Below, one piece after another: positions 3,116 through 41,697 of a stretch of DNA of 64,000 nt (positions are counted from its first letter, which is position 1; each line of letters opens with the position of its first letter). The DNA is taken from the IMG/VR virus record IMGVR_UViG_3300022660_000042; one strand, 5' to 3'. A program made the position numbers and the translations under genes. Under the pieces are notes generated by a model. That model was given only the letters and a program-made list of their open reading frames with translations, was not told where the DNA came from and made no database searches. The DNA is from a virus. Taxonomy: Duplodnaviria; Heunggongvirae; Uroviricota; Caudoviricetes.

Positions 3116-4192
3116 TTAACTGAAAAACTCGAACATCGTCGGGCGTTCCAAATTAATTTCTTCCTTTGGACCTAACCAACCGGCAATTCTGAACATCGTA
3201 TCAAAAAGCTGACAGAACGATTTTCTGAACGCGGTTTCATAGTCAATCTCAAAGTATTTATTAAATTCTTTCGGCCAAGATTCAAGATATGCAACCGCTT
3301 CAATCGGTTCTATCTTTCCGTCCATATCCTTAGCTGAAATCTTTTGAGAAGGCTTTACATATACATAACGCAATTTTGAGTTATTACGAATCGGATTATA
3401 TTTCAACCTGTCCTTTGTGATAATATAGTTGTAGATAATGGAAATCTTTGCACCGAAAATAAGACCTGTCGGAAGAATCAAACCATGGTCCATATAATAG
3501 TCCATAAGAGTTTCGTATTTCGTGTCGAACGGCTGTGTATTCATCGAACTTTCCATATATTGTTCTCTGAATTTATCCATTGCGATTGTAGTATATTTCG
3601 TATAGTTCTTGATACCAATAACAGACGAAATAACATTCAAATCTGAGCTCTTAAACTGGTCATAAACCTTGTAGATATATTCCTGTGCTTCTTCCTTACC
3701 GATACCGTCACAAATTTTGAACGCGAGTTCTTCGGCTGCAACCTTACAGAAGTCAGGCATTATAGATTTCTTAATAGGAATACCCATGATTTTGTGTTTC
3801 ATGTGGTCCAACGGAAACTTCTTACCTTCACTGTCGATAATATTACCGATATACAACTTCTTCGCAAAACAGAACATGTTTTTGAAGATATTTTCACGGT
3901 TAAAATTAATCTTATTGACTGTATGGAATTGTGTGGCTCGAATTTCAAGAATCCTATCAAAAAAGCGCTGGAATATGTTTTCGCATTTCTCAAAATATCT
4001 ACGATATTCATCTTCATTCGTAATCGATAAACCAGATTCTAATAAACGACGCTTAAGTTCGATAATCGAGAAATAAACGGAGTCCGTGTCATTATGTACG
4101 GCACAGACATCACGTCCTTTCACAACAAGCGGACTCATGTTGTTCATTTGAAATTTATCAATCTTTACATCTAATGCTTTCTTAAATTCCAT
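3116..4192 (-). CDS. family-B DNA polymerase, C-terminal subunit (palm motif C / thumb)
   Basis: Contains the HNDTDSVYF motif C (YGDTDS-type). Real start ATG at 4192..4190 (MEFKKALDV...) with GAGGA Shine-Dalgarno 6 nt upstream. The junction with the upstream gene is TAA-A-ATG. Confidence 0.8.
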   Translation of the reverse strand: MEFKKALDVKIDKFQMNNMSPLVVKGRDVCAVHNDTDSVYFSIIELKRRLLESGLSITNEDEYRRYFEKCENIFQRFFDRILEIRATQFHTVNKINFNRENIFKNMFCFAKKLYIGNIIDSEGKKFPLDHMKHKIMGIPIKKSIMPDFCKVAAEELAFKICDGIGKEEAQEYIYKVYDQFKSSDLNVISSVIGIKNYTKYTTIAMDKFREQYMESSMNTQPFDTKYETLMDYYMDHGLILPTGLIFGAKISIIYNYIITKDRLKYNPIRNNSKLRYVYVKPSQKISAKDMDGKIEPIEAVAYLESWPKEFNKYFEIDYETAFRKSFCQLFDTMFRIAGWLGPKEEINLERPTMFEFFS

Positions 4193-4193
4193 T

Positions 4194-13498: not shown

Positions 13499-13533
13499 AA
13501 TATAGTAAAATGACGGGCTTTTGTAAACCCGCC
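13499..13533 (-). promoter_or_regulatory. sigma70-type promoter TTTACA-17-TATATT with -35 inside hairpin
   Basis: Plus-strand AATATA at 13499..13504, TGTAAA at 13522..13527, hairpin GACGGGCttttgtaaaCCCGCC at 13512..13533. Confidence 0.55.
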
Positions 13534-14144: not shown

Positions 14145-14173
14145 TTTACAAAAACGCTTCAGTTTGCTATATT
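14145..14173 (+). promoter_or_regulatory. sigma70-type promoter for the CCA-adding enzyme gene (TTTACA-17-TATATT)
   Basis: -35 TTTACA at 14145..14150, a 17-nt spacer, -10 TATATT at 14168..14173, and ATG at 14181 only 7 nt downstream, i.e. a leaderless arrangement. Confidence 0.55.
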
Positions 14174-14180
14174 TATTAAC

Positions 14181-15368
14181 ATGAAGATTGATTTATCGAC
14201 TATCAAAAATGACCTCCTCACTTCTGGTATGAAACTCGCTTCCGCTATCGAAAGCAAGGGTTACGAAGCATATCTGGTTGGCGGTTGCGTTCGTGACATG
14301 GTTCGTTGGACTATTGGCCAATGTGGTTTTCCGGATATTCACGATATTGACATCAGCACGAACATGCCTATCGATGAACTTCAGAAAAACTTCAAAACTG
14401 CCAGTAACAATGGCGAAGCTCACGGCACTATTCTGGTTTTCCAGGACGGTGAGCCTTTTGAAGTGACTCAGTTCCGTACCGATGGCGCTTATACCGATGG
14501 TCGTCACCCGGATTCAATCAAGTTCGCCAAGACTTTCAAGGAAGACTGCTTACGCCGCGATTTTACTATCAACGCAATGGGTCTTACCGGTCAGGGTGAA
14601 GTCATTGACTATTACGGTGGTATCGATGATGTTACGAACGGCATTATCCGAGCTGTCGGTAAGGCAGAAGACCGTTTTGCTGAAGATTATCTCAGAATTT
14701 TCCGCGGTGTTCGTTTCATGGTCAACTTCGACTATTCTTTGGCTGATAGTACCTATGAAGCGATGAAGACAACCGTTGATACTTATACTTATAAGATTAA
14801 CTCTCTGTCTTATCCTCGTATTCGTGATGAAATCAGCAAGGTCAAGAATCCTTCTAAGAATCTCGCTTTGTTTTTCACGACACTGTATCGTACCGGTATT
14901 CTGAAATACTTGGTTACTTTCGAAGATGTTGATATTCCGGGTCTGATTGCACGTTTAGAATCTGTAAATCATCTCACTGCGGATAACATCTTTGCGGTTA
15001 TCGCTTTCGGCGAATACGACGTAATGTTACATCGTCTTGCTGCTACTCGAGAAGATTCTCGTTTGCTCAAGTGGTATTATTACATGCTCAAGAAGCTGAA
15101 AGAACCTAACGAAAATACAAGCTGGGACACTATTGTTAAATTCGTCGAAGGTGATTACAAAACTCTCCTCGAACTGTCCAAGATTGTTCCTGCCTGGTAT
15201 AACAGAATTCCTATCGCTTTGAAGCTTAAAAAGGATAAACCCGATTTACATGCTATCTCTGAAAGAGTTCAGAACGAATTTCATGTTAAACCAGGTCCTA
15301 AGTTCGGTGCAGCTGTTAGCTACCTGCTCGAAGAGGCTTACGAAGCAAAAGCAAGGCATCTTCAATAA
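14181..15368 (+). CDS. cca: tRNA nucleotidyltransferase (CCA-adding enzyme) / poly(A) polymerase family
   Basis: Class II nucleotidyltransferase head motif GGCVRD with downstream D.D and RRDFTINA-like signature; 395 aa. It is the only convincing plus-strand gene. Confidence 0.8.
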   Translation: MKIDLSTIKNDLLTSGMKLASAIESKGYEAYLVGGCVRDMVRWTIGQCGFPDIHDIDISTNMPIDELQKNFKTASNNGEAHGTILVFQDGEPFEVTQFRTDGAYTDGRHPDSIKFAKTFKEDCLRRDFTINAMGLTGQGEVIDYYGGIDDVTNGIIRAVGKAEDRFAEDYLRIFRGVRFMVNFDYSLADSTYEAMKTTVDTYTYKINSLSYPRIRDEISKVKNPSKNLALFFTTLYRTGILKYLVTFEDVDIPGLIARLESVNHLTADNIFAVIAFGEYDVMLHRLAATREDSRLLKWYYYMLKKLKEPNENTSWDTIVKFVEGDYKTLLELSKIVPAWYNRIPIALKLKKDKPDLHAISERVQNEFHVKPGPKFGAAVSYLLEEAYEAKARHLQ

Positions 15369-18397: not shown

Positions 18398-18432
18398 AAT
18401 ATAATAAAAATAAGGCATTTTGTAAATGCCTT
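18398..18432 (-). promoter_or_regulatory. promoter (TTTACA-17-TATATT) with -35 inside a terminator-like hairpin
   Basis: Plus-strand AATATA at 18398..18403; hairpin AAGGCATTttgtAAATGCCTT at 18412..18432 contains the -35 (plus-strand TGTAAA). Confidence 0.5.
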
Positions 18433-18819: not shown

Positions 18820-19938
18820 TTACTTCTGCAGATAATCTTGAATAATCTTTTCATGATGGAAACCCATCTTCGGAAGATTACCGACACTGAACCATGCTGC
18901 ATCCTTCGCATCGTCGCCGGCCTTAGCCATCTTCTTTTCCTTACCAGTAACCCTTACAGATACTGCTGTATCGATAATACGCAAGCGTGGGTCAAACATA
19001 TGGCTATAGGTCTTAATCTGTTCGAACTTTTCAACTGGGAGGTTCAGAGACGTTTCTTCGCGGAATTCACGCTGTGCTGCATGTTCCAAAGAAGCATCAG
19101 CCTTTTCAGGAAGTCCGGTTTCCTTATTGATATAATCAACCGGATTAAAGAATCCACCAGGAGTACAGAAGTAATTCATATACGGTGGTTTCCTACGGCG
19201 AATCAACAGAACTTCATCACCGGAAATACCGACAATATCAACCGTGTTTGCAAACTTTCCCCAACCCTGCTTCTTATAGTTTTCAATCCACTGCTTTTCA
19301 AGTTCAGTATAGTTGGTCGGATTCTGGTCATAAAGACTGTTTGTCTTAATCGGATTATCACGGTCATCCGTAAGTTCGCCTTCTTTTCGGATATATTCAA
19401 ACACTGGCTTGCTAATCAGTGTCTTAACATCCTTATAGTGGCATTCCGGATTACGGTAGAAAATTTTACGAGCTTCGCTACTGGAAATACCTTCAGTCTT
19501 AATACCCATGAGATAAGTACAATCATAACCGTACTTCGATTTCAATGCACCATCATTATCATCACGAGGAATAACCAAGAACTTATAGTTATTCAAAAGC
19601 TGATTACCGAACTTCCACTTTCCGTTAACCAAAGAATACCATTCGTCTTCGCCGATAACAATAGTAATATCCTTATCCTTGGTACCGAACTTATGGGAAA
19701 TGAATTCATAAGTCCTGTTATTCTGAACGAGAATCGTAGGATTCAACTTTCGTGCAGTCATTGCGACCTTAACCATCGCGACACGTTCATCTACCGGAGT
19801 CTTATAATTCTTTTCGTCCGTATTGGAAACAAGAACATAAAGTTCATCGCCCTTACGAACCTTTTTGCTCACTGCCTTAATAATAGCTTCATGAGCGTGA
19901 GTAATCGGATCAAATGCACCACCAATCAAATACTTCAT
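18820..19938 (-). CDS. bifunctional NMN adenylyltransferase / Nudix ADP-ribose pyrophosphatase (NadM-Nudix, NatV-like)
   Basis: N-terminal GGAFDPITHAHEAIIK ((H/T)xGH nucleotidyltransferase motif). C-terminal Nudix box GGFFNPVDYINKETGLPEKADASLEHAAQREFREETSL. Confidence 0.8.
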   Translation of the reverse strand: MKYLIGGAFDPITHAHEAIIKAVSKKVRKGDELYVLVSNTDEKNYKTPVDERVAMVKVAMTARKLNPTILVQNNRTYEFISHKFGTKDKDITIVIGEDEWYSLVNGKWKFGNQLLNNYKFLVIPRDDNDGALKSKYGYDCTYLMGIKTEGISSSEARKIFYRNPECHYKDVKTLISKPVFEYIRKEGELTDDRDNPIKTNSLYDQNPTNYTELEKQWIENYKKQGWGKFANTVDIVGISGDEVLLIRRRKPPYMNYFCTPGGFFNPVDYINKETGLPEKADASLEHAAQREFREETSLNLPVEKFEQIKTYSHMFDPRLRIIDTAVSVRVTGKEKKMAKAGDDAKDAAWFSVGNLPKMGFHHEKIIQDYLQK

Positions 19939-21988: not shown

Positions 21989-22017
21989 TAATATAGTAAA
22001 AATATTCATATTTGTCA
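21989..22017 (-). promoter_or_regulatory. sigma70-type promoter TTGACA-17-TATATT
   Basis: Plus-strand AATATA at 21989..21994, TGTCAA at 22012..22017, exact 17-nt spacer; followed upstream by hairpin AGGCTGACttgcGTTAACCT at 22030..22051. Confidence 0.6.
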
Positions 22018-22082
22018 ACCTAAAAAATAAAAGGCTGACTTGCGTTAACCTTTTACCCTCACACATCCAATATTCTTTTTTC

Positions 22083-24011
22083 TTACTTCTTTGTTTCGGA
22101 GAACAAATCAATAAGAGTGTCCTTGCTCAACTGAGTCAAATCAAGTCCAACTTCAGAATCCTTATCGGAATCGTCAACAAATGTAAAGCCTGCTTTTTCA
22201 AGAATCGGCTTCAGGTTGACGAACGAACGACACTTATTCTTGAGGTTTTCAATATACACGTCTGCATATTCATGATTTGGCACACGTCCACCACCTTGAG
22301 TAAGGTCCATGAGGAATACCTTATTGTCTACAATAAGTGCACACTGCTTTTCGCGTTCATTATCAACTGGAATGATAAATTCAGCGAGAACATTGTTCGG
22401 ATCCACCTTTACATCCACACGCTGGCTATAATAAGCATCTTTCTTAAGCTTCTTCTCTTGACGAGCAACGAAGAACTTAAACTGAGACTTAGGAGAACCA
22501 TTGTACTGGTTTACCGATACCTTGCCATCAGGACACTTACAGTCAATGTAGAACAATTCTGTTGCTTCCGGACGAGCTGTAGTCATATCACCCGAGTAAA
22601 TGATCTTATTCTCATGGTCCTTGTAACTTGCGTTCCAACCATAAGTACCTCCATTAATGTCATACATATGAAGGTCAAAATCCTGGGTTCCCCATTCTCC
22701 ACGCCAATAGATACCAACAACGTTGTGGTCGTCGGACATATCAACGGAAGTGCCAAACGGATAATTACCGATGAAGTTCTTTTCAGAAGTCGGCATTGTC
22801 AGATTGACATGCTGAGGATAACGAACAGTACATGCCTTATCCTTGATAGACTTGACCAACGAATCTTCAAGAAGATTGTAGACAACCATCAAGTAGGAAT
22901 TCAATTCCTGATTAGGCACCGGAGCATCCTTACGAACCCACATCTTGCCGTTACGAATTACATACATCTTTCCGCTAGCATTCTGGAGCTTAGCGAGAAT
23001 ACCCTGCATGAGCGTGACCTTCTTGAAATTGGTGATTTCACCCTTTGCAAGACGTTCACGAACTTCGTCCAGCTTCTTGTGTTCAGAAAGTACAGTTTCC
23101 CAGAAACCTGCAGTAAACGGCTTATGGTCAGTAACAGCCAAACGACGGATATGGTTAATAACCGAGGAGTTTGTCTTCTGTCCAACAACAACGGCCTTAA
23201 GCTTTGCTGCGGCCTTTCTGAAAGCTTCATTCTTGAAAACTGCCGGCTTACCGTCAACCTTTTGGTTCTTGAACGCTAAGAATAACGGCTTGAAACGATA
23301 GAAAATCGAAGCGAGAGCGTGTAGCTGCTCATCCGACAACTTCGTAAAGTCGACAGTTTCTGCCTTTTCCTTAATGGCCTTGATAGTCTTTCGGTCCTTG
23401 ATAAGCATGGCGCTGCCAGTTGCCTTAAAGACGAAATAACGTAACATGTTGAACGGGTCCTTGCCGTAGATACCTGTTGCATCCATCAATGCTATGGAAG
23501 CTTCCTTATTCTTGATGGAATCGACGTCGAGTCCATAAGTATTGAAACGCTTATCTTGCGTAATGAAGTTCACAAGGACATTAATGGTTTCAGTTTCAAG
23601 GGCAATCCCGGACTGGAGCATCTTTACACAGCGTGTATAAATTTCCTCGTCAGTCGCAGGCATAATAACCTTGAATGAATTGTACGGAATTTCTACGTCC
23701 GGAGCGTTGTTTGGAATATACGCATCGCCCGTATAATTTGTGCCATAAGTAGAGGCATAATGAAGAAGTTGATCTACCAACAGTTCAAAACGCGTCTTGG
23801 ACGTAATGTCAGACCACTTAGCATAAAACGTCTTATTGTAATTGGTCTTAGCTTCAGCATTCACCCAGTCAAGGGCAAGCTTCGAGCAACAGTCGGGATG
23901 AATAATCCAACCATACTTTGCTGATTCTGCGTTAACCTCTTCAAAAGAGCGCTTAGAGTTACCTTCTGCCTTAGGCATGACATTGAACATTGTAATCAAC
24001 TTAAGATTCAT
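22083..24011 (-). CDS. large hypothetical protein (642 aa)
   Basis: Long uninterrupted ORF with RBS AGGAAAAATT-ATG and an upstream promoter at 24103..24131. No motif I could assign. Confidence 0.6.
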   Translation of the reverse strand: MNLKLITMFNVMPKAEGNSKRSFEEVNAESAKYGWIIHPDCCSKLALDWVNAEAKTNYNKTFYAKWSDITSKTRFELLVDQLLHYASTYGTNYTGDAYIPNNAPDVEIPYNSFKVIMPATDEEIYTRCVKMLQSGIALETETINVLVNFITQDKRFNTYGLDVDSIKNKEASIALMDATGIYGKDPFNMLRYFVFKATGSAMLIKDRKTIKAIKEKAETVDFTKLSDEQLHALASIFYRFKPLFLAFKNQKVDGKPAVFKNEAFRKAAAKLKAVVVGQKTNSSVINHIRRLAVTDHKPFTAGFWETVLSEHKKLDEVRERLAKGEITNFKKVTLMQGILAKLQNASGKMYVIRNGKMWVRKDAPVPNQELNSYLMVVYNLLEDSLVKSIKDKACTVRYPQHVNLTMPTSEKNFIGNYPFGTSVDMSDDHNVVGIYWRGEWGTQDFDLHMYDINGGTYGWNASYKDHENKIIYSGDMTTARPEATELFYIDCKCPDGKVSVNQYNGSPKSQFKFFVARQEKKLKKDAYYSQRVDVKVDPNNVLAEFIIPVDNEREKQCALIVDNKVFLMDLTQGGGRVPNHEYADVYIENLKNKCRSFVNLKPILEKAGFTFVDDSDKDSEVGLDLTQLSKDTLIDLFSETKK

Positions 24012-24102
24012 AATTTTTCCTCATTAAAAGTGTTAAAGCGAGAAGTAAGTATTTTGCCTAAATTATAATGATATAGGAACATCCTTTGCTTTAACGGTGT
24101 TA

Positions 24103-24131
24103 AATATAGTAAATTGTTTGTGTTTTGTAAA
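24103..24131 (-). promoter_or_regulatory. sigma70-type promoter TTTACA-17-TATATT for the 22083..24011 gene
   Basis: Plus-strand AATATA at 24103..24108 and TGTAAA at 24126..24131, 17-nt spacer. Confidence 0.55.
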
Positions 24132-24139
24132 CCCTATTT

Positions 24140-24307
24140 TTAAAGGTTTTTTAATGCTTTTTTCCAAGCCTTTACTTTCTTCTTGGATTCTTTGCTCAGT
24201 TTTAATCCGAAAATATCCATTAGTGCATTGGCAGTATCAACACCTGCCAAACGACTTTCGAGTTCTTTCTTCTTTAACGAATTTTCCGTTTCCAATGAAC
24301 TTCCCAT
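24140..24307 (-). CDS. small basic hypothetical protein (55 aa, possibly leaderless)
   Basis: ATG at 24307 lies 8 nt downstream of the -10 of the promoter at 24316..24344. The track ORF start at 24325 would sit inside the promoter. Confidence 0.35.
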   Translation of the reverse strand: MGSSLETENSLKKKELESRLAGVDTANALMDIFGLKLSKESKKKVKAWKKALKNL

Positions 24308-24315
24308 ACATGTAT

Positions 24316-24344
24316 AATATAGCAAGTGTATTTTATTTTGTAAA
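24316..24344 (-). promoter_or_regulatory. sigma70-type promoter TTTACA-17-TATATT
   Basis: Plus-strand AATATA at 24316..24321 and TGTAAA at 24339..24344, 17-nt spacer. Confidence 0.55.
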
Positions 24345-24356
24345 CCCCTAAATATA

Positions 24357-24388
24357 AAAAAGTAGAGCCGGTTGACTCTACTTTTAAA
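24357..24388. terminator. rho-independent terminator hairpin
   Basis: AAAAGTAGAG-ccggttga-CTCTACTTTT inverted repeat with flanking A- and T-runs, downstream of the patatin gene. Confidence 0.65.
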
Positions 24389-24402
24389 TTAAAACCCGAA
24401 TA

Positions 24403-25272
24403 TTATCGATTTTTTACAAAATCTAAAATATCCTTTTTAACTGATTCGTAGTAGTCATCCCAGATTTTCATAACTAAATTAATAGTTTTATCTGATACAT
24501 CATCCATTTTTATCTTTTTTGTATAATTCGGAGATGCATTGAAAACATACTTATCGCCGAGAATGGCTTGTGCTTCATAAATTGGTGATTTTGAACTTCT
24601 TGCTACCCAATCTCCAATCATATATTCTGCCCATCCTAACAATGTTTTATTTCCATGTTCTGTATTTGGTGTATTCATTCCAGTATTAAAATTTAAAAGT
24701 TTAAGATTTCGATTGCCTTGTTTAAATTGACCAGCAATAACTATATCGGCAGGGTTATTTGCCCAACAGCCACCGTCCATATAAGAGTTTCCATCTTTTT
24801 CTATAACATCAAAATATGTAGGTGCTGCTGTTGATGTAAGTACAGCAAATGCCTTTGTTGTATCTTTATCACCTAAATCCCACACTTTTTCTACAGAAGC
24901 ACCATTCATAAATGTTGTTGTAATATAGATAGGTTTTTTCCAATCACTAACTTTACCTTTAAGTTTTTCTTCTAAAATTTTTTTAAGATTTGTATTATCA
25001 TATGTTGGACACGTTGGTTTAAGTCGTTTATACCAGGAATTTTTTGTAAAAATTTTCTTTAAATTATCTTGGTATAATTTAAATATATCATGTGCACTCA
25101 TACCTTCATTCATACATGCAGCAACTATTGAACCCGTAGAAGTACCAGTATATGCTGATACATAATCACCTAATTTTTTACCTAGATCTTGTTCCAATCT
25201 GCACATAAATGCTAAAGGTCCCATAGCCAAGGCTCCACCACCTTCAATACTTAAACACAATTGTTTGCCCAT
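24403..25272 (-). CDS. patatin-like phospholipase
   Basis: Oxyanion-hole GGGALAMG (GGGxxG) near the N-terminus and nucleophile elbow GTSTGS (GxSxG); DGG near the end of the domain. Confidence 0.8.
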   Translation of the reverse strand: MGKQLCLSIEGGGALAMGPLAFMCRLEQDLGKKLGDYVSAYTGTSTGSIVAACMNEGMSAHDIFKLYQDNLKKIFTKNSWYKRLKPTCPTYDNTNLKKILEEKLKGKVSDWKKPIYITTTFMNGASVEKVWDLGDKDTTKAFAVLTSTAAPTYFDVIEKDGNSYMDGGCWANNPADIVIAGQFKQGNRNLKLLNFNTGMNTPNTEHGNKTLLGWAEYMIGDWVARSSKSPIYEAQAILGDKYVFNASPNYTKKIKMDDVSDKTINLVMKIWDDYYESVKKDILDFVKNR

Positions 25273-25303
25273 AAAATTCTCCTAATATAATTTTATATTA
25301 TAT

Positions 25304-25822
25304 TTATATAATTATATTATTCCGAATTTTTTCTATAAGTATATCCAACTCTTTTCTTTTTAAAATAATAACATTATTTTTTATCATGCATTCTTGTTTT
25401 TCCAGTTGTAATTCTTTTGTAAATGGATTTATTAATTGATTATTATCATTAAAGAAAAAATCTCCTTTAACTTCATAAAATTTACCATTTATAATAAAAT
25501 CTGGCTTATATTTATGTTCTTGTTCTTCTTTAATATAAGTAAACGTAATTTTTGGATGATATTCAAACACATTCTTACTGGACTGTAATGCTTCATATAA
25601 TTCATATTCCCAGTGAGAATCGAAATATATATCATTATAATAAAAACCATATACTGTATGTGATTGTGTATTTGGATTTTGACCGGGATTTTTATAACCA
25701 GTTTTTTCATAATATGTTTGCTGACATTTAGCAAATGATTCAGGATTCGACCAATTATGGTAATACCCTGTTTTTCTAAAATATTCTTCAGAACGTTGTT
25801 TTAAATGTTCTGGATTTTTCAT
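25304..25822 (-). CDS. repeat-containing protein (tandem ~23-aa YFxKTGYYHNWSNPES repeats); same frame as upstream ORF across a single TAA
   Basis: Repeats continue upstream of the annotated ATG through 25823..25927 with no stop until the TAA at 25930..25928. Confidence 0.5.
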   Translation of the reverse strand: MKNPEHLKQRSEEYFRKTGYYHNWSNPESFAKCQQTYYEKTGYKNPGQNPNTQSHTVYGFYYNDIYFDSHWEYELYEALQSSKNVFEYHPKITFTYIKEEQEHKYKPDFIINGKFYEVKGDFFFNDNNQLINPFTKELQLEKQECMIKNNVIILKRKELDILIEKIRNNIII

Positions 25823-25927
25823 ATTATGAGTATAACCAGTTTCTTTAAAATATGTATCTATACATTTTTGTCGTGAATCTGGATTAGACCAATTATGATA
25901 ATATCCGGTTCTTTGAAAATATGTATT

Positions 25928-26260
25928 TTATGTTCGAAGCCTAACATCTTGTTTCCATTCATCAGTATGAGAATGCCATGTTTCTGATGCAGATAATTTT
26001 GCTTCTTCACTTTGTCTTGCACACAATGTACAACAATAACGTCTATAACCGTATGTAAAATTTATAAATTTTGTTTCTTTACCACAATTTTTACAAATAT
26101 TTTCATCAGGTTCTTTTAAATATTTATCATAATATTCACGAGAATGTATATTGTGCTTAACTAATAAATGTGTAGAAATTCCCAATGATTTTATTTGTTT
26201 ATGACAGAATTTACATTCTATTATATCATGTCTTACTATATTAAATTTACTTATACTCAT
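25928..26260 (-). CDS. zinc-ribbon protein
   Basis: Two CxxC pairs (CKFCHK...CKNCGK) plus CCTLCARQ; 110 aa. Confidence 0.5.
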   Translation of the reverse strand: MSISKFNIVRHDIIECKFCHKQIKSLGISTHLLVKHNIHSREYYDKYLKEPDENICKNCGKETKFINFTYGYRRYCCTLCARQSEEAKLSASETWHSHTDEWKQDVRLRT

Positions 26261-27330: not shown

Positions 27331-28484
27331 TAGAACACATATCCTTCACGAGATTTACCGGTTGTAACATTACGCAAGATAGTCGGAATAATTTCACCAG
27401 CCTTCGTAATAATAACTTCATGACCGATTTCGATGCCCATATATTCAAGCATGTCAATATTGCACATATTTGCACGCTGAACTGTAGTTCCGCAAAGTTC
27501 AACAGGTTCAACTACTGCAACCGGAGTCAAATTGCCATTCTTGATAGACCATTCAATGTTAATGAGCTTGGTCTGAGCAAGAGAATACTTCGGCTTGAGT
27601 GCAATCGAGAATTCCGGCAAATAATTGGTTTCAAGATCTTCATAATCAATCAAAGACGTCTTCCAAACAAGACCGTCAATCTGATAATCACGTTCTTCAT
27701 GCCAAATCTGGTCCATAAGAGCGACAGCCTTTTCACCGTTCATGGTTTTAAGGTCGTAAATCTTGTAGTCAACAACATCAAAACCCTGGTTTTTCATCCA
27801 ATCAAGCATATCAGACTGAAGTCGGAAATGACGCTTGGTGTTAGAGGCATAGCGAGCTTCATAAACCTTGATATTAAGCTTTTCACAATCTGCACCGTCG
27901 AGATGCTTCATAATACCAGAAGCAGCATTTCGGCAGTTCTTATACTTCGGGAAATACTTTTCCTTAACGGACTTGTAAAGCAAAATTTCGCCGCGAATAG
28001 TTCCTGTAAAATCCTTATCGACTTTCTTGACGAGACCATTCATCTTAAGAATATTATTGGTAATGTCGTCACCGTATGTACCATCACCACGGGTAGTACC
28101 CTGAACGAACTTTCCATCGACGTATTTAAGCGCAATAGAGCAGCCATCGAGCTTCAAAGGAGCAACGACATATTCATGACCATTCATACGGCACTTATTG
28201 AACCAGACATCCATTTCTGGAGCCGTATTGGCCTTATTCTGAGAACCCATGATAATATCATGCTTGACTTTTTCAAAACCTTCAGTATGGTCCTTACCAA
28301 CTTCCTTCAAAACATCAGAATCAGGATATTTAGTCTTCAGTTCATCCCAGAGTGCATCAAATTCAATGTCGCTCATGATAGGAGAATCGGAATTATAATA
28401 GGCATCTTGTGCCTGACGGATTTTTGCTTCAAGTTCGTTCTTATTCATGTGATACAATATAGTAAAAAATATAGGCTTTGTCAA
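27330..28484 (-). CDS. ligA: NAD-dependent DNA ligase (LigA-type adenylation domain, compact phage form)
   Basis: N-terminal LigA-like opener AQDAYYNSDSPIMSDIEFDALWDEL; adenylation lysine motif KLDGCSIALKYVDGKFVQGTTRGDG (compare LigA [25 protein letters not shown]). Confidence 0.85.
   Translation of the reverse strand: MTKPIFFTILYHMNKNELEAKIRQAQDAYYNSDSPIMSDIEFDALWDELKTKYPDSDVLKEVGKDHTEGFEKVKHDIIMGSQNKANTAPEMDVWFNKCRMNGHEYVVAPLKLDGCSIALKYVDGKFVQGTTRGDGTYGDDITNNILKMNGLVKKVDKDFTGTIRGEILLYKSVKEKYFPKYKNCRNAASGIMKHLDGADCEKLNIKVYEARYASNTKRHFRLQSDMLDWMKNQGFDVVDYKIYDLKTMNGEKAVALMDQIWHEERDYQIDGLVWKTSLIDYEDLETNYLPEFSIALKPKYSLAQTKLINIEWSIKNGNLTPVAVVEPVELCGTTVQRANMCNIDMLEYMGIEIGHEVIITKAGEIIPTILRNVTTGKSREGYVF
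28456..28484 (-). promoter_or_regulatory. sigma70-type promoter TTGACA-17-TATATT embedded in hairpin
   Basis: Plus-strand AATATA at 28456..28461, TGTCAA at 28479..28484, and hairpin TATAGGctttgtcaaCCTATA at 28470..28490. Confidence 0.55.
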
Positions 28485-29487: not shown

Positions 29488-30387
29488 TTAAAGTCCGGTT
29501 TGTCTTCCAGAGAAATTAACAGAACCTCTACCTTCTACTGTAAGGTAATCATCATAACTGCGCCATTCGTTTTCCTTTCCTGCATGACGAACGAAAGAAA
29601 TATCACCAGTAAAATCCTTAATTACTGTAGCACACCAGTCTTTCTTCTTAAATTCTTCAACGGCATTCTTATCAAGCAACGGTTCATCAAGCGGATAAAC
29701 ACATACCATACCCGCATCTGCACAGAACTGTCCAATTTCTTCCTTTGTATCTAAATCGAATACAGTACAAGACCAATCGCCATAAAGCGTATCAGTGCAC
29801 ATTCCAGACTTGATAGATTCAGCCTTGGAAACCCAATCATGGTCATCATTTACGATATAGCAAGGATCCGTGATAATAATATCCTTATGCTCGAAATGCA
29901 TTGTTCTCGGATGTTTAATTTGATATTCTCGACGAAGAATAAATGCAATCAAATTCCAATAATCATGAGCAAATCCAAGTAATCGTTTCTTTCGCCATGT
30001 TTCAGCGGTATAATTTTTAGCTTTTTCTTTTGTACCGTCTGCACGGGTAATAAACATGTCATCATATTCCATATCATATGCAATATTCCAGTCAAGCTTT
30101 TGACACAGATTAGCCCTACGCTGGCATTCTTCATAACCGAGCTTATAGTGATATTTCTTGATATGTAATTTCTTAAATTCAGAGCATTTAATTTTACGAA
30201 GTTCGTCATTTCGGTTAACCCAATAACGCATATTTTCTACTTCGCGCTTAGCTTTAAGAACCTCTTCAAGTTCTGCGCCTTTAAGCAAGCCCTTATCTGC
30301 CATACAGAACTTACACATAAAATTCTTAACATCCTTAACGCCTTTGGCACAATATTCGCCACCACATACAATACACTTTGCTGTCAT
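29488..30387 (-). CDS. Cys-rich hypothetical protein (N-terminal zinc-binding-like CxxC...C...CxxC)
   Basis: MTAKCIVCGGEYCAKG...CKFC; 299 aa. RBS AAGGAG 8 nt upstream of the ATG. Confidence 0.5.
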   Translation of the reverse strand: MTAKCIVCGGEYCAKGVKDVKNFMCKFCMADKGLLKGAELEEVLKAKREVENMRYWVNRNDELRKIKCSEFKKLHIKKYHYKLGYEECQRRANLCQKLDWNIAYDMEYDDMFITRADGTKEKAKNYTAETWRKKRLLGFAHDYWNLIAFILRREYQIKHPRTMHFEHKDIIITDPCYIVNDDHDWVSKAESIKSGMCTDTLYGDWSCTVFDLDTKEEIGQFCADAGMVCVYPLDEPLLDKNAVEEFKKKDWCATVIKDFTGDISFVRHAGKENEWRSYDDYLTVEGRGSVNFSGRQTGL

Positions 30388-30411: not shown

Positions 30412-30444
30412 AATATAGAAAAAGGGGAGACTTTCGTCAACCCC
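30412..30444 (-). promoter_or_regulatory. sigma70-type promoter TTGACG-17-TATATT with -35 and spacer inside a GAAA-tetraloop hairpin followed by T5
   Basis: Minus strand reads GGGGTTGACGAAAGTCTCCCCTTTTTCTATATT. Plus coordinates: AATATA 30412..30417, CGTCAA 30435..30440, hairpin 30424..30444. Confidence 0.65.
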
Positions 30445-30649
30445 TATAATTCGGGTACATTCTGCAAGTGTCCCAAATATTTGCCTGTTCTTCATCTGAC
30501 AAATAAATTGTCTGGTCTTCCGGAACTGACTTTCCTTCCAATCGATTCATAAATGAATTACGCATTTTTAAAATAGCATCTTGTCGTTCATCAATGCCAT
30601 TGATACACATGTCGAATTTTTCAGCTAACTGTTGTGCTTTGGATTTCAT
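30437..30649 (-). CDS. hypothetical protein
   Basis: 70-aa ORF. Confidence 0.4.
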   Translation of the reverse strand: MKSKAQQLAEKFDMCINGIDERQDAILKMRNSFMNRLEGKSVPEDQTIYLSDEEQANIWDTCRMYPNYRG

Positions 30650-30661
30650 TCTTGTTCTCCA

Positions 30662-31090
30662 TTAATAAAGTTCTTTTGCAAAAAATTCTTTAGTAGCACT
30701 TTGCATAGCAACGGCTTTCCAATCCGATACAGTTTTGGTATTCATCCATTTATCCATATCATCAATCATACATTGAGTTTTAGTCTTCAAACCAACAGAC
30801 TTCAACAATTCACGTTGACGCCATTCATTAAAGTCTCGCTTTTTAGCATCTTGTTTTGCTCTGTATGCCAAAACCGCGGCTTCACCTTGTCTCTTTCGTC
30901 TTTCTCGTTTTTCTACACCAGTTTCCGTATCTGACAAAAGGTCATCGAATTCTTCAATCAGCTTTCCAAGCTTGTAATCTACACTATTTCGATAATCTTT
31001 TTGGAAAATGCATTCTAACATGCCTTGCATGTACAGAATAACAGCACCTATAAGAAGGACGCAAGCTGCAGAAATAATGATTGTTGCCAT
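30662..31090 (-). CDS. membrane protein (N-terminal TM, basic coiled C-terminal region)
   Basis: MATIIISAACVLLIGAVILYM TM helix; RBS AAGAGGAG upstream. Confidence 0.5.
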   Translation of the reverse strand: MATIIISAACVLLIGAVILYMQGMLECIFQKDYRNSVDYKLGKLIEEFDDLLSDTETGVEKRERRKRQGEAAVLAYRAKQDAKKRDFNEWRQRELLKSVGLKTKTQCMIDDMDKWMNTKTVSDWKAVAMQSATKEFFAKELY

Positions 31091-31116
31091 GATGAACTCC
31101 TCTTGTTTATGTTCAT

Positions 31117-31148
31117 AATATAGAAAAAGGGCCGACTTTCGTCAACCC
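31117..31148 (-). promoter_or_regulatory. sigma70-type promoter TTGACG-17-TATATT inside GAAA-tetraloop hairpin plus T-run
   Basis: Minus strand reads GGGTTGACGAAAGTCGGCCCTTTTTCTATATT. Plus coordinates: AATATA 31117..31122, CGTCAA 31140..31145, hairpin 31129..31148. Confidence 0.65.
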
Positions 31149-31178
31149 TTTATTATTATAGGAGAAAATATATACTTA

Positions 31179-32819
31179 TTAGCGACGACGGCGACGAGAA
31201 AGTTCAGCAATAACTGTCGGATCGTTCATCATGTCCGAAAGGCTACGTCCAATAGAAGTATTAGCTTCAGCCGGTTCCTTAGTCTTGTCAACATTCGGAG
31301 TTTCCGGACGAGCTTCAGCCTTAGGTTCATTTACGACTTCTGCTTCGGTCTTTTCAACCTTTGGAGCACCGGAAACACCAGCGAGTCGGGCACCGAACAT
31401 AGAACCGAGAACAGTCTTGAGGTCCATACCGAGAGAATCGGTCAAACCGCTAGAAATCTGAGTAAGCGTCTTGGTAATATCGCCGGTGAGCTTTGCAGTA
31501 CCGCTTTCACCGTACATATTGATGTTACCAATCTTTTCCATCGGCTTAGCAACTGCACCAGCGATAGCCGGGAGCTGTTCGAAATACTTTTCAATAGTCT
31601 TGAGCTGCATTTCCTGACGAGCTGCATCACCATACTTCTTCATGGCTTCAGCCTTCTGGTCAAGAGCTGCTGCTTCTGCAAGACCCTTAGCCTTTACAGC
31701 ATCAGCTTCAGCTTCACCCTTAGCCTTAGTAGCTGCAGCTTCAGCGAAAGCCTTTTCCTTATCAGCTTCAGCCTTGGCGATAATTGCCTTAGCTTGCTGC
31801 TGCTGGGTAAAGAGTGCTGCTTCAGCTTCCTTCTGCTGCTTATAAAGTTCAGCATCAGAACGCTGCATCTGAGCCTGCTTATCGGCTTCAGCCTTCTTCT
31901 GAATTTCAGCTTCGAGTTCCTTCTGACGGACAGCTACCATGCGTTCACGAATTTCAATCTGCTTTTCCTGCTTTGCAACTTCTGCAGCTGCTGCAGTAAT
32001 ATTGATGGTCTTCTGCTGTTCCTGCTTCTGAATTTCATAAGCGGCATCAGCTTCGGCCTTCTTAGTATCAGAAATTCGCTTAAGGTCAGCCTTCTTAACT
32101 TCGAGGTCGTTCTGCTTCTGAGCGATTTCAAGGTTTGCTGCAACCTGAGCATCGTTTGCTGTCTTCGCTGCTTCAGCCTGAGCAATCTTCACGTCACGTT
32201 CTGCATTTGCTCGAGAAATTGATGCAGCCTTCTGAATTGCTACAGCCTTATCAACACCGAGGTTTTCAATTACCTTACCGTCGTCCGAGAAGTTCTGAAT
32301 ATTGAAGGTCTTAACGATAATACCGAGCTTTTCAAGATCTGGAATAGCATTTTCAAGAACCTTCTCAGAAACCTGCTTTCGGTCCGTAACCATGTCGACA
32401 AGATTCATCTGGCCGACAATCTCACGCATATTACCCTCAAGCACGTCAACAATCATCGCCTTAATCTGTTCAATCGGCTTATTGAGGAAGTTCTGGGCAG
32501 CTTTCTTAATTGCTTCAGGTTCATCAGAAATCTTTGCATTAACAACAGCGTCAACTGTTACATTAATGTAGTCCTTGGTCGGAACTGCCTGCTTAGTCTT
32601 GACGTCAATCGGAATCAACTTCAAGCTAAGAACGTCAGCACGTTCAAGGAACGGGATCTTGAAACCGGCATGCCCGATAATTGTTCGAAGCTGTCGGAAA
32701 CCCGAAATAATAATTACTTCATCCGGCGCCGCCTTAATATAAGACGTAATGAAGAGGATAACGAGGAAAAGTACGAGCAGGCCGATACCCGCACCGATGA
32801 GGATATTTGAACTAAGCAT
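31179..32819 (-). CDS. flotillin-like SPFH/band-7 domain protein with long Ala/Glu/Lys-rich coiled coil
   Basis: N-terminal TM helix, then an SPFH-like region (APDEVIIISGFRQLRTIIGHAGFKIPFLERADVLSLKLIPIDV...), then a ~200-aa AEA/AKA-repeat coiled coil typical of flotillin/YqiK. Confidence 0.75.
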   Translation of the reverse strand: MLSSNILIGAGIGLLVLFLVILFITSYIKAAPDEVIIISGFRQLRTIIGHAGFKIPFLERADVLSLKLIPIDVKTKQAVPTKDYINVTVDAVVNAKISDEPEAIKKAAQNFLNKPIEQIKAMIVDVLEGNMREIVGQMNLVDMVTDRKQVSEKVLENAIPDLEKLGIIVKTFNIQNFSDDGKVIENLGVDKAVAIQKAASISRANAERDVKIAQAEAAKTANDAQVAANLEIAQKQNDLEVKKADLKRISDTKKAEADAAYEIQKQEQQKTINITAAAAEVAKQEKQIEIRERMVAVRQKELEAEIQKKAEADKQAQMQRSDAELYKQQKEAEAALFTQQQQAKAIIAKAEADKEKAFAEAAATKAKGEAEADAVKAKGLAEAAALDQKAEAMKKYGDAARQEMQLKTIEKYFEQLPAIAGAVAKPMEKIGNINMYGESGTAKLTGDITKTLTQISSGLTDSLGMDLKTVLGSMFGARLAGVSGAPKVEKTEAEVVNEPKAEARPETPNVDKTKEPAEANTSIGRSLSDMMNDPTVIAELSRRRRR

Positions 32820-32858
32820 TTATGTTCCTTTTGTTATGTGTTTTTGTTTAGTTAAAAT

Positions 32859-33599
32859 CTAATCGTTCAGCCATGAGTTTTCCATTGCAATAAAGATACA
32901 ACATATTACAATAATAACTATCGAGAAAATTATCCAGAAATACAATACTGTATGTTTCCAGCTAAAATCCTCTACTGCTTGATCGATTTTTACATTGTCA
33001 CGATATTCTGCATCATTCATTCGATGATTATCGATATTTGCATATACCGTTCCAGTAAAACTTAATGGGCGACAATAATAAACATATCGTTTATTATGTG
33101 CGAAATTGATTGTCTTTACATAATGACCGCTTGGCAATTCCGGAAACTGACCGTAGTAAAAGTCTTTCTTAATAAAATTAACTTTATCTACATTCCAGTC
33201 TTTTGCTCCATGATAGTCCCATGTCCAATAGACCTTAGTATGACAGCTACGTGTCTTTCCAGAACCAGTACAAACAAGCTTCGTATGCATCGTATAGACC
33301 TCGAGCACTCGATGGACTGACATATACTTACCTGGCAAACCGTCGTCTGTAACACTGCCTATCGCGGAAACAGTTCCGTATGCCAAAGTATGCCCAGCAT
33401 TAGTATTGAATGCATATTGAAACTGTGTAGAATCGTTATCGATTTTCACAGCCTGATTGTACTTCGCATTATGGTCATCTTGCCAAAGATCCATCCTATT
33501 ACCTACGTAGAAACCTACTGCTAGGGAAATAAGAGCGAATACAAGCGCTACAATAACTTCACGCTGAGTTACTTCAATATTGGTATCACCAATATACAT
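32859..33599 (-). CDS. membrane protein (TM helices at both ends) cotranscribed with LemA
   Basis: Start overlaps the LemA stop by 1 nt. Hydrophobic helices near the N- and C-termini. Confidence 0.5.
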   Translation of the reverse strand: MYIGDTNIEVTQREVIVALVFALISLAVGFYVGNRMDLWQDDHNAKYNQAVKIDNDSTQFQYAFNTNAGHTLAYGTVSAIGSVTDDGLPGKYMSVHRVLEVYTMHTKLVCTGSGKTRSCHTKVYWTWDYHGAKDWNVDKVNFIKKDFYYGQFPELPSGHYVKTINFAHNKRYVYYCRPLSFTGTVYANIDNHRMNDAEYRDNVKIDQAVEDFSWKHTVLYFWIIFSIVIIVICCIFIAMENSWLND

Positions 33600-34156
33600 T
33601 AATTCTTTTCCTTAAGAAGTCCTGTGGGTGCGTCTACTGGCGCATTTGCAAATTCAAGAACCTTATAGTCCTTTTCCTGATAACCTAGAATACTCAAACA
33701 GATGTTTGACGGGAACATACGAACATGCTGATGATATTCGGTTACATTTTTATTATAATACTTACGATGCGACGCAATTCGATTTTCAGTCATGGATAAT
33801 TCATTCATGTACTGCTTATAATTTTCTATTGAACGCAATTCTGGATAACGTTCTACAACACCACGGATATATGCAGAAGCATTAACATTTCCGTTGCCTT
33901 CTGCTGGTGTACGAGCCTGTGATAGCTGTACCAAAACTTCGGCTTCATGCTTGTTATACGACATTACTGCTTCTGCCAAGTTAACAAGCAAGCCTGCACG
34001 TCGATTATATTCGGTGTTCAAATCGCTCAAAGAACTTTCAATGAGCAATTCCTTTGCGATTGCCTTATTTTGTGAGCTTTGTACGCCAAACACTGTGGCG
34101 ATAATCAATGCTACAATAATAGCAAGACTTGAAATTAAGACTGTTACGGGTTTCAT
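33599..34156 (-). CDS. lemA: LemA-family protein
   Basis: N-terminal TM plus conserved LemA-like core (...YNRRAGLLVNLAEAV...VERYPELRSIENYKQYMNELSMTENRIASHRKYYNKNVTEYHQHVRMFPSNI...). Confidence 0.7.
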   Translation of the reverse strand: MKPVTVLISSLAIIVALIIATVFGVQSSQNKAIAKELLIESSLSDLNTEYNRRAGLLVNLAEAVMSYNKHEAEVLVQLSQARTPAEGNGNVNASAYIRGVVERYPELRSIENYKQYMNELSMTENRIASHRKYYNKNVTEYHQHVRMFPSNICLSILGYQEKDYKVLEFANAPVDAPTGLLKEKN

Positions 34157-34168
34157 TGGTTTCTCCTA

Positions 34169-34681
34169 TTAGTTGTTATTTAAAAGCTTGGAAATGTCTT
34201 CAACGATCTTGGCTGTATCAAGTTCATTGACCGGCGGGTTATTTTTGCCTAAAAGTGTGTCTTCATTTCCTATATACTGGTAATCCCATGTAATAGACTT
34301 ACCATCACTAGTTTCTAACATGGGAACAAGAACATGATAAATACCCTTATAGTTCTTATTCTTTTCATTAAGCTGGTTTAAAATCTTATTTGCTGCGTTT
34401 TTAACAATTTTACTACGCATTTGAATACGGTCTGATTCAAATATCTTATTCAAAGAATCATTATAAGCCCAGAAACGTAATCTTTCATACCTAAACCATT
34501 CAACAACGTTAGGACCGTAATTTTCTCGCATATACGCTTCCATAGTCGGCGTAGTATCTGATTTTTCAGAAGTTCTTGAATTCAAAAGTTTTTCATAATG
34601 GTCAATATAAGCCTTAGCCGTAAGTCGATTGACCAAAACAGTCCATGCTACCAATAAACAAACAATAATGACCGCTGCCAT
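34169..34681 (-). CDS. membrane protein
   Basis: N-terminal TM helix MAAVIIVCLLVAWTVLV. Confidence 0.5.
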   Translation of the reverse strand: MAAVIIVCLLVAWTVLVNRLTAKAYIDHYEKLLNSRTSEKSDTTPTMEAYMRENYGPNVVEWFRYERLRFWAYNDSLNKIFESDRIQMRSKIVKNAANKILNQLNEKNKNYKGIYHVLVPMLETSDGKSITWDYQYIGNEDTLLGKNNPPVNELDTAKIVEDISKLLNNN

Positions 34682-34706: not shown

Positions 34707-34739
34707 AATATAAAAAAAGAGGTGACTTTCGTCAACCCC
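34707..34739 (-). promoter_or_regulatory. sigma70-type promoter TTGACG-17-TATATT inside GAAA-tetraloop hairpin plus T-run
   Basis: Plus-strand AATATA at 34707..34712, CGTCAA at 34730..34735, hairpin GAGGTGACtttcGTCAACCCC at 34719..34739. Confidence 0.6.
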
Positions 34740-34761
34740 TTTTTAATAATTATTTACAGGC

Positions 34762-41668: not shown

Positions 41669-41697
41669 AATATAGAAAAATATCGTAATTTTGTAAA
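41669..41697 (-). promoter_or_regulatory. sigma70-type promoter TTTACA-17-TATATT
   Basis: Plus-strand AATATA at 41669..41674 and TGTAAA at 41692..41697. Confidence 0.55.

Follow-up and report, generated by a model that had tools for sequence, protein, structure and literature searches.

What would a phage do with a flotillin, a membrane-scaffold protein of its hosts, encoded beside a LemA-family protein and further membrane proteins? The question is raised by a gene cluster in a 64,000-nucleotide stretch of a virus of the class Caudoviricetes (IMG/VR record IMGVR_UViG_3300022660_000042), the whole of which is referred to here as the window. A sequence-only reading of the locus had described five consecutive minus-strand open reading frames (ORFs), all encoding transmembrane (TM) segments, as one membrane-microdomain module. 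The five ORFs are present with exactly the boundaries then given, and a Kyte–Doolittle scan finds hydrophobic segments in each, one at the N-terminus of g170, LemA, flotillin, and g142, and one at either end of g246. The single conserved module did not survive comparison with relatives, as synteny splits it into independently moving parts: the cluster combines, as a mosaic, three elements that are independent of one another, namely flotillin with a travelling g170, the LemA–g246 pair, and the lineage-specific g142. The flotillin was most likely captured by the phage lineage from a Fibrobacter-type host, as judged from sequence comparison. The genes and their parts are as follows:

34169–34681, minus strand: g170, 170 aa, with an N-terminal TM anchor and the rest predicted helical; no family.
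33599–34156, minus strand: LemA, 185 aa, with a TM segment at residues 4–22 and the LemA domain at residues 43–165.
32859–33599, minus strand: g246, the LemA partner, with a TM helix, a beta-rich domain, a second TM helix, and then an invariant C-terminal N-x-W-L.
31179–32819, minus strand: flotillin, 546 aa, assigned from profile matches and 70–74% identity to the Fibrobacter chromosomal flotillin.
32748–32804, minus strand: flotillin TM segment, residues 6–24.
32199–32732, minus strand: flotillin Band_7 domain, residues 30–207.
31620–32219, minus strand: flotillin A/E/K/Q-rich helix, residues 201–400.
31482–31712, minus strand: flotillin Flot domain, residues 370–446.
31182–31370, minus strand: phage-specific C-terminal extension, flotillin residues 484–546, made up of a P/E/A/K-rich linker, a short stretch of helix-like sequence, and RRRRR at the very end.
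30662–31090, minus strand: g142, 142 aa, anchored by an N-terminal TM segment and highly charged in its C-terminal part; no family.

The flotillin/SPFH assignment is borne out by Pfam, where the protein scores 78.8 bits for Band_7 (PF01145; cut-off 23.6) and 40.1 bits for Flot (PF15975; cut-off 27). The coiled-coil region of about 200 residues with AEA and AKA motifs that had been noticed by eye is also there: residues 201–400 are 52–72% A/E/K/Q and contain nine AEA, two AKA, and one AAE, and residues 201–350 are free of Pro and Gly. Alignment with NCBIfam FloT (NF058507) runs over residues 13–474 of 546 and reaches 247 bits against an equivalog cut-off of 700 bits. The protein is identified by these profiles as a full-length flotillin, yet not as a FloT equivalog. 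A tape-measure or structural coiled-coil protein, the possibility that the sequence-only reading had set against its own assignment, was rejected, as no such family was matched and SPFH and Flot domains were found instead.

The phage protein can be aligned almost over its whole length with eukaryotic flotillin-1/2, and its residues 29–469 align to residues 4–418 of human flotillin-1 (E 2.8e-47), whose dome structure has been solved (PDB 9L3G, 9BQ2); the same dome architecture would be expected of the phage protein. Eukaryotic flotillins attach to membranes by acylation, whereas the phage protein has a TM anchor in that place; it is also encoded by a single gene, and presumably forms a homo-oligomer or mixes with host flotillin. 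With the Fibrobacter, FloT, and YqiK flotillins it shares the N-terminal anchor, the Band_7/SPFH domain, the Ala/Glu-rich helix of about 200 residues, and the Flot domain. The yuaF–floT and yqiJ–yqiK operons include an NfeD partner; in contrast, Pfam and NCBIfam searches matched no NfeD-type gene among the flotillin neighbours in the window, and none stands beside the Fibrobacter copy either.

The closest named relatives of this flotillin are chromosomal copies of cultured Fibrobacter, such as WP_088629361.1 on a 1.09-Mb contig, and phage and Fibrobacter proteins are 71% identical across 494 residues. In a scan of 185,579 species, with one genome each, Fibrobacter matched at 70–74% identity, which the alignments place over residues 1–483, and the best other genus at no more than 51%. 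The exceptions without a Fibrobacter label were two contigs of ‘Methanobrevibacter’ metagenome-assembled genomes (MAGs) at 82% and one ‘Prevotella’ contig at 70%. The two ‘Methanobrevibacter’ contigs (L035, JAFRFB010000097.1; L036, JAFQXD010000042.1) are 172–191 kb long with 32% GC, while the ‘Prevotella’ contig (L055, JBGVBD010000044.1) and a second contig of a Fibrobacter MAG (L053, NZ_JBGUHR010000105.1) have the same gene content at about 50% GC. In all four the flotillin neighbours are of phage type, in the order g436–g170–flotillin or LemA–g246–flotillin, and the four appear to be mis-binned jumbo-phage contigs, L053 and L055 by gene content only.

In Fibrobacter, a PanD–flotillin–...–RsfS–ArgS neighbourhood is common to 19 genomes (at least 19 carry the syntenic gene), among which the flotillin is 94–98% identical, and the gene is accordingly classed, from synteny and conservation, as vertically inherited core. 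This synteny and conservation point to a Fibrobacter-type host as the source of the phage copy. A neighbor-joining tree, which was not bootstrapped, places the Fibrobacter clade next to the jumbo-phage clade that contains the window copy; two unlabelled contigs of 205–334 kb fall inside the Fibrobacter clade, and a bootstrap of its monophyly was thus mis-specified (0/50) and set aside. None of the partner genes of the window cluster lies beside the Fibrobacter flotillin; in gene context the two copies are unrelated. The GC content of the phage gene (0.465) is the highest in the window; the excess is largely due to Ala codons, and GC content at third codon positions (GC3) is no outlier (z 1.3). 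Composition therefore gives no support for a recent transfer, and the capture would be an old one.

What distinguishes the phage proteins is their C-terminus. The conserved core ends in ...SMFGAKLAGV, and four aligned Fibrobacter proteins stop at most about 10 residues later, whereas phage proteins of the flotillin clade run 40–75 residues further, through a P/E/A/K-rich linker and a helix-like stretch to a basic patch that terminates most of these tails and reads RRRRR in the window copy. Matches in the genome scan behave in the same way, those of Fibrobacter ending at query residues 483–492 and those of phage contigs reaching 500–508. From these alignments, the phage flotillin is judged to have gained its extension after capture. 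The C-termini of the SPFH proteins HflK/C converge at the apex of their assembly, and by analogy the flotillin tails may decorate the apex of a dome.

The second element is the LemA–g246 pair. The LemA assignment was upheld by a Pfam score of 97.4 bits (PF04011; cut-off 26.2; E 8.8e-28), and the protein also matches PDB 2ETD (E 1.2e-19) and phrog_1383 (E 6.6e-29). Its partner had been described as a two-TM protein translationally coupled to LemA, and g246 indeed has TM segments at both ends, the LemA stop codon and the g246 start codon sharing one base (TAATG). g246 matches phrog_3886 (E 3.2e-50) and belongs to a family of 917 clusters at 50% identity, nearly all of them 230–290 aa long, in which none of nine members scanned has a Pfam domain. 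One member, P0344, was considered as a fusion with LemA, which was rejected because its 146-aa N-terminal extension is likewise without a Pfam domain. An AlphaFold2 (AF2) model of g246 is confident (predicted local distance difference test, pLDDT, 88.6), and a Foldseek search with it against the PDB gave nothing at E <= 1e-3 and no convincing match to a solved structure. Against BFVD, the model retrieved one family member and weak matches to giant-virus ORFans (Satyrvirus, Tupanvirus, Klosneuvirus, Hyperionvirus), at E 1e-8 to 1e-9 and probability 1.0, with a TM-score of only about 0.4; this likeness may reflect a shared TM–beta–TM layout rather than homology.

LemA is present in all 26 phage records that carry g246. 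In the window, as in no fewer than 10 independent phage lineages, the pair is adjacent, with gene order and strand unchanged. Adjacent and often overlapping pairs occur in Enterococcus Schiekvirus, where the cassette had already been annotated, in Lysinibacillus phage LC76P1, in the Lactococcus prophage PLg-TB25, and in several metagenomic phages, and the LemA and g246 identities to the window pair drop together (65/52, 49/33, 47/31, and 43/26%). LemA–g246 is thus a self-contained, translationally coupled cassette that circulates among very different phages. Its named counterparts (EFDG1 gp156/gp157, EfV12-phi1 _21/_22, LC76P1, and PLg-TB25 ORF23/24) have the same two families in the same order, overlapping or nearly abutting, in a non-structural region. 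The Schiekvirus and LC76P1 pairs are 43–48% (LemA) and 26–36% (g246) identical to those of the window, and the PLg-TB25 partner is matched by profile comparison only; these phages infect Gram-positive hosts and, unlike the window, have no flotillin within the 2–6 kb flanks examined. In Schiekvirus (L026/L119), the pair lies among the genes PnuC and NadR of nicotinamide adenine dinucleotide (NAD) salvage. The nearest named bacterial relatives of the phage LemA are found in Lachnospiraceae, not in Fibrobacter, at about 49% identity and in a phage-like context.

A bacterial-type arrangement is seen at locus L120, where LemA is followed by two TPM-domain proteins (LemA–YgcG–DUF477), YgcG scoring 144 bits for TPM. 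As in the phage cassette, LemA has an N-terminal TM segment and the soluble domain of the next gene product is flanked by TM segments; the phage partner is instead beta-rich and without a Pfam entry, and the second TPM gene is missing. g246 was considered as a divergent TPM domain and rejected, since hhalign gave a probability of 0.9% between the g246 profile and YgcG and Pfam gave no match. Given the bacterial LemA–TPM–TPM order and the lack of relationship between g246 and TPM, the phage cassette is read from these comparisons as placing an unrelated membrane protein in the position of the TPM partner. The L120 record itself (CAKLQH020000003.1, 240 kb) is named ‘Acinetobacter phage MD-2021a’, and at this locus, which also holds gltD, it looks like bacterial chromosome.

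That the elements move independently is evident from their neighbourhoods. The order g170–LemA–g246–flotillin is kept in close relatives, in which g170 homologues stand upstream of LemA, and g142–g70 is kept in the nearest ones only. Three contigs (L012, L053, and L055) have LemA–g246, a 136-aa ORF, and then flotillin, with g170 missing; in L013, L035, and L036, a g170-like gene overlaps the start of flotillin and LemA–g246 is missing. Flotillin without LemA–g246 is found at L013, L035, L115, L116, and L117, and LemA–g246 without flotillin in Firmicutes phages. The gene immediately upstream of flotillin differs among the flotillin-clade loci L116 (3292–3981), L115 (2723–3973), and L117 (1–3899), the genes upstream at these three encoding an IF3 homologue, an enzyme of the CCA-adding/poly(A) polymerase family, and a cadherin-repeat protein exceeding 2000 aa. 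In large phages at a greater distance, one of them an abundant T4-like phage of the pig gut (221 kb), flotillin stands alone, and in many large phages of gut and rumen the gene recurs with unrelated neighbours. Flotillin and LemA had been called unusual in a phage; they are rare in cultured phages, with flotillin in 10, LemA in 39, and g246 in 26 of 50,697 records, but not unusual in large phages of the gut and rumen.

The predicted topology also separates flotillin from LemA. By the positive-inside rule, the flotillin family (141 homologues) averages 0.01 Lys and Arg residues before the TM segment and 1.40 after it, which predicts a cytoplasmic soluble part, whereas LemA (115 homologues) averages 2.15 before and 1.05 after, which predicts an N-in/C-out protein with its domain outside the membrane, in agreement with a published prediction of LemA topology (PMC3905215). 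The predicted placement of the LemA domain outside and the flotillin domain inside argues against a simple complex of the two.

The sequence-only reading had further assigned a hairpin-promoter to each of the five genes. The element GGTTGACGAAAGTC...TTTTTcTATATT has five matches in the window against 0.29 expected, and its copies at the cluster lie upstream of g170, of g142, and of the next gene, g299, so that only two of the five genes are preceded by one. It folds as a stable hairpin (−13 to −18.5 kcal/mol, z −2.4 to −6.4) whose stem holds the −35 box TTGACG, with the −10 box TATATT 17 nt downstream. The features concerned are:

34707–34744, minus strand: promoter P1, hairpin-embedded and of sigma-70 type, upstream of g170 (−14.4 kcal/mol, z −4.15).
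34714–34744, minus strand: hairpin of P1.
34730–34735, minus strand: −35 box TTGACG of P1.
34707–34712, minus strand: −10 box TATATT of P1.
31117–31151, minus strand: promoter P2, upstream of g142, inside a terminator-like hairpin right after the flotillin stop codon (−18.5 kcal/mol, z −5.5).
30412–30445, minus strand: third copy of the hairpin-promoter, at the downstream boundary of the cluster and the start of the g299 unit.
30437–30649, minus strand: g70, 70 aa, soluble and without a TM segment, outside the five genes first described.

The 12-nt spacer between g170 and LemA and the 39-nt spacer between g246 and flotillin show no structure and no promoter match. Since g170 and g142 have the sole hairpin-promoters of the cluster and these spacers are unstructured, there are two transcription units, g170–LemA–g246–flotillin and g142–g70; g70 is apparently co-transcribed with g142, as no promoter or hairpin lies between them. 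Each unit is read from a sigma-70-type promoter with its −35 box inside a terminator-like hairpin. Four copies of the element in the window (30412, 31117, 34707, and 52422) have the −35 box within a GC-rich hairpin that resembles the terminator of the preceding gene. The promoter type, together with neighbours of replication and nucleotide metabolism, suggests early or middle transcription of the cluster by the host sigma-70-type machinery.

As to function, the proteins of the cluster most likely serve to maintain the inner membrane of the host, or to reorganise it, during the long infection of a jumbo phage. Bacterial flotillins and other SPFH proteins have roles in protecting the membrane and in its fluidity, and one of them partners two small integral membrane proteins (PMC8581546); two structural reports describe solved flotillin complexes as membrane-attached domes or cages (PMC11260169, PMC13000311); and LemA is induced together with membrane-homeostasis genes (PMC13236525). 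In the account proposed here, the cluster would be expressed early or in the middle of infection, and flotillin would insert through its N-terminal anchor and build, by analogy with known SPFH assemblies, a dome at the inner membrane of the host, on its cytoplasmic side, either alone or mixed with host flotillin. Together with g170, it would preserve or rearrange the organisation, fluidity, and integrity of this membrane through the infection, and its tails would cluster at the apex of the dome to create a phage-specific binding surface. LemA–g246 would act apart from flotillin, mainly at the outer face, as a pair for envelope homeostasis or envelope modification. A mosaic in which a captured and modified flotillin sustains the host membrane while LemA–g246 acts separately is held with moderate confidence, its chances of being right and of being wrong standing about level.

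A comparable operon is PspA–YdjG–YdjH–YdjI of B. subtilis, in which an SPFH protein and small integral membrane proteins likewise serve membrane protection (PMC8581546); the phage cluster differs in having no PspA homologue, YdjI is not a classical flotillin, and the likeness drawn here, also to YdjG/H, is one of architecture.

Several points weigh against this account. Capture rests on similarity, synteny, and the neighbor-joining tree without bootstrap, and a Fibrobacter host is deduced from one gene and a mis-binned contig. The placement of the tails is extrapolated from the structures of eukaryotic flotillins and HflK/C, the timing of expression solely from promoter type and neighbouring genes, and the topology of g246 is ambiguous by the positive-inside rule. 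In RefSeq and PHROG, the phage LemA goes under the label ‘virion structural protein’, which would clash with a role in the host membrane, although no experimental basis for the label was found. A literature search for studies of function yielded none on phage flotillin/SPFH proteins or on LemA of phages, and one published paper calls a phage SPFH gene unexplained. On the question of the host, data on clustered regularly interspaced short palindromic repeats (CRISPR) have led to the report of a jumbo-phage family that targets Fibrobacterota (PMC12826114), which makes a Fibrobacter host plausible but unproven.

The sequence-only reading had named superinfection exclusion, membrane protection, and an assembly or replication site as possible roles. 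Among the alternatives, superinfection exclusion is unlikely, though it fares best. Here the inner-membrane proteins (flotillin domes and/or LemA–g246, g170, and g142) would block the entry of DNA from later phages or the function of a receptor. T4 Imm and Sp are early membrane proteins that act in exclusion, and the cluster is of a similar cast, with five membrane proteins, sigma-70-type promoters, and a location in a region of replication and nucleotide metabolism; LemA–g246 also occurs in temperate and virulent phages alike. However, a host housekeeping scaffold that is still 71% identical would be an odd choice for this purpose, the pair of the temperate PLg-TB25 lies upstream of terminase and outside the lysogeny module, and the cluster proteins resemble no known exclusion or defence protein. 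A scan of PADLOC-DB 2.0 for known anti-phage defence gave only marginal matches (E about 1e-3 at best; one is to LmuB, through a coiled coil), on which a known defence system was rejected.

Protection against the host's own defences is more doubtful. Flotillin (with g170) and LemA–g246 would, on this explanation, keep the inner membrane stable or reseal it when abortive-infection effectors depolarise or perforate it, which would fit the link of SPFH proteins to the PspA membrane-repair response and membrane protection (PMC8581546), the co-induction of LemA with membrane-stress genes (PMC13236525), and the recurrence of flotillin genes in many unrelated large phages. The case is purely circumstantial, however: no PspA/ESCRT-III-like gene was found among the nine cluster and flanking proteins scanned, and there is no homology to known anti-defence proteins.

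It is also improbable, to a somewhat greater degree, that all five proteins form a single machine, a phage-specific membrane microdomain or invagination that serves as a platform for replication or assembly, with flotillin as scaffold and LemA acting like MamQ. MamQ, which is needed for the formation of the magnetosome membrane, is the only LemA member that has been tied to a process (PMC4902198), and the genes are contiguous and co-oriented, four of them in one operon; the phage-specific basic tail of flotillin and the retention of the five-gene order on a 229-kb relative would also suit such a machine. Yet synteny is lost just beyond the closest relatives, and the soluble domains of LemA and flotillin are predicted on opposite faces of the membrane. 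The phage LemA does share a domain with MamQ (NCBIfam NF040966, E 3.3e-16 over residues 89–168), but it scores 59.4 bits against an equivalog cut-off of 250, is 185 rather than 273 aa long, and has no magnetosome context.

Control of lysis timing is a very slight possibility, in which the small anchored proteins would be holin-, antiholin-, or spanin-like and the SPFH protein would modulate a membrane protease or the triggering of a holin. The SPFH proteins HflK/C regulate FtsH, and N-anchored architectures such as those of g142 (a TM segment and a charged helical tail) and g170 (an anchor and a soluble domain) are seen in i-spanins and antiholins. No endolysin, holin, or lipobox-containing o-spanin gene is adjacent, however, the sigma-70-type promoters and replication-gene neighbourhood are atypical of lysis cassettes, and the Schiekvirus LemA pair sits among genes of NAD and nucleotide metabolism. 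Least probable of all is that the flotillin, its many poly-arginine tails gathered at the apex of the dome, would build, with a MamQ-like LemA, g246, and g170, an inner-membrane invagination or vesicle, distinct from the chimallin nucleus, that shelters or tethers phage DNA replication or head assembly.

Flotillin and LemA are members of known families, and what is new is the phage-specific tail and the non-TPM partner of LemA. If the proposed account of a captured flotillin and a separate LemA–g246 pair is true, it would be routine for large phages of the gut and rumen to bring along a copy of a membrane-scaffold protein of the host, and the notion of host-derived auxiliary genes would reach beyond metabolism to how the cell membrane is physically organised. 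With the 70–74% match to a Fibrobacter core gene, a host can be proposed in concrete terms for this uncultured lineage of jumbo phages, and it would be a key fibre degrader of the rumen. The presence of LemA–g246 in easily cultured Enterococcus phages makes the cassette directly testable there, and a result might supply the first function for a LemA protein outside the magnetosome.

The window belongs to a large, T4-like phage of rumen type. That its lineage is one of jumbo phages follows from the 229-kb contig on which its gene order recurs and from contigs of 350–469 kb that carry other members of the flotillin clade. A PHROG search identified UvsX, a split family-B DNA polymerase (PolB), a T4-type RNA ligase, and an NAD-dependent ligase in the window. 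Megablast of the region against 50,697 deposited phage records gave zero matches and hence no close nucleotide relative; the relatives of the window are IMG/VR viral contigs.

PDB sequence searches with g170 and g142 were without matches, the single-sequence AF2 model of g170 is too poor for use (pLDDT 48), and g142 occurs in the closest relatives only. The cluster is followed immediately, on its downstream side, by g299 (29488–30387, minus strand), which has a Cys-rich N-terminus (CxxC...C...CxxC) resembling a zinc ribbon and found no match in Pfam, PHROG, NCBIfam, or PADLOC; neither g70 nor g299 has a signal sequence or a family match.

A looser version of the promoter, TTGAC-N18-TATATT, has 17 matches in the window against 3.2 expected when one mismatch is allowed, and a promoter-like consensus, TT(G/T)ACAAA-N-TTTaCTATATT, is repeated upstream of genes across the window:

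148–176, 13499–13527, 18398–18426, 21990–22018, 24103–24131, 24316–24344, 28456–28484, and 41669–41697, minus strand: consensus sites.
14145–14173, plus strand: consensus site.

Among the ORFs taken as genes, all but one are on the minus strand. The sole plus-strand gene (14181–15368, 395 aa) has the plus-strand site at 14145–14173 as a promoter-like site of its own, and the remaining long plus-strand ORFs overlap minus-strand genes. PolB is divided between two minus-strand ORFs, 3116–4297 (393 aa, C-terminal part) and 4194–6401 (735 aa, N-terminal part), which overlap by about 100 nt and match the same PHROG polymerase families; the gene may truly be split, or a frameshift or an intervening element may account for the two ORFs. 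A cytidylyltransferase/NUDIX fusion (18820–19938) and the NAD-dependent ligase lie within about 15 kb of the cluster, and a low-GC stretch at 24001–26000 has a GC content of 0.287 against a window mean of about 0.37.

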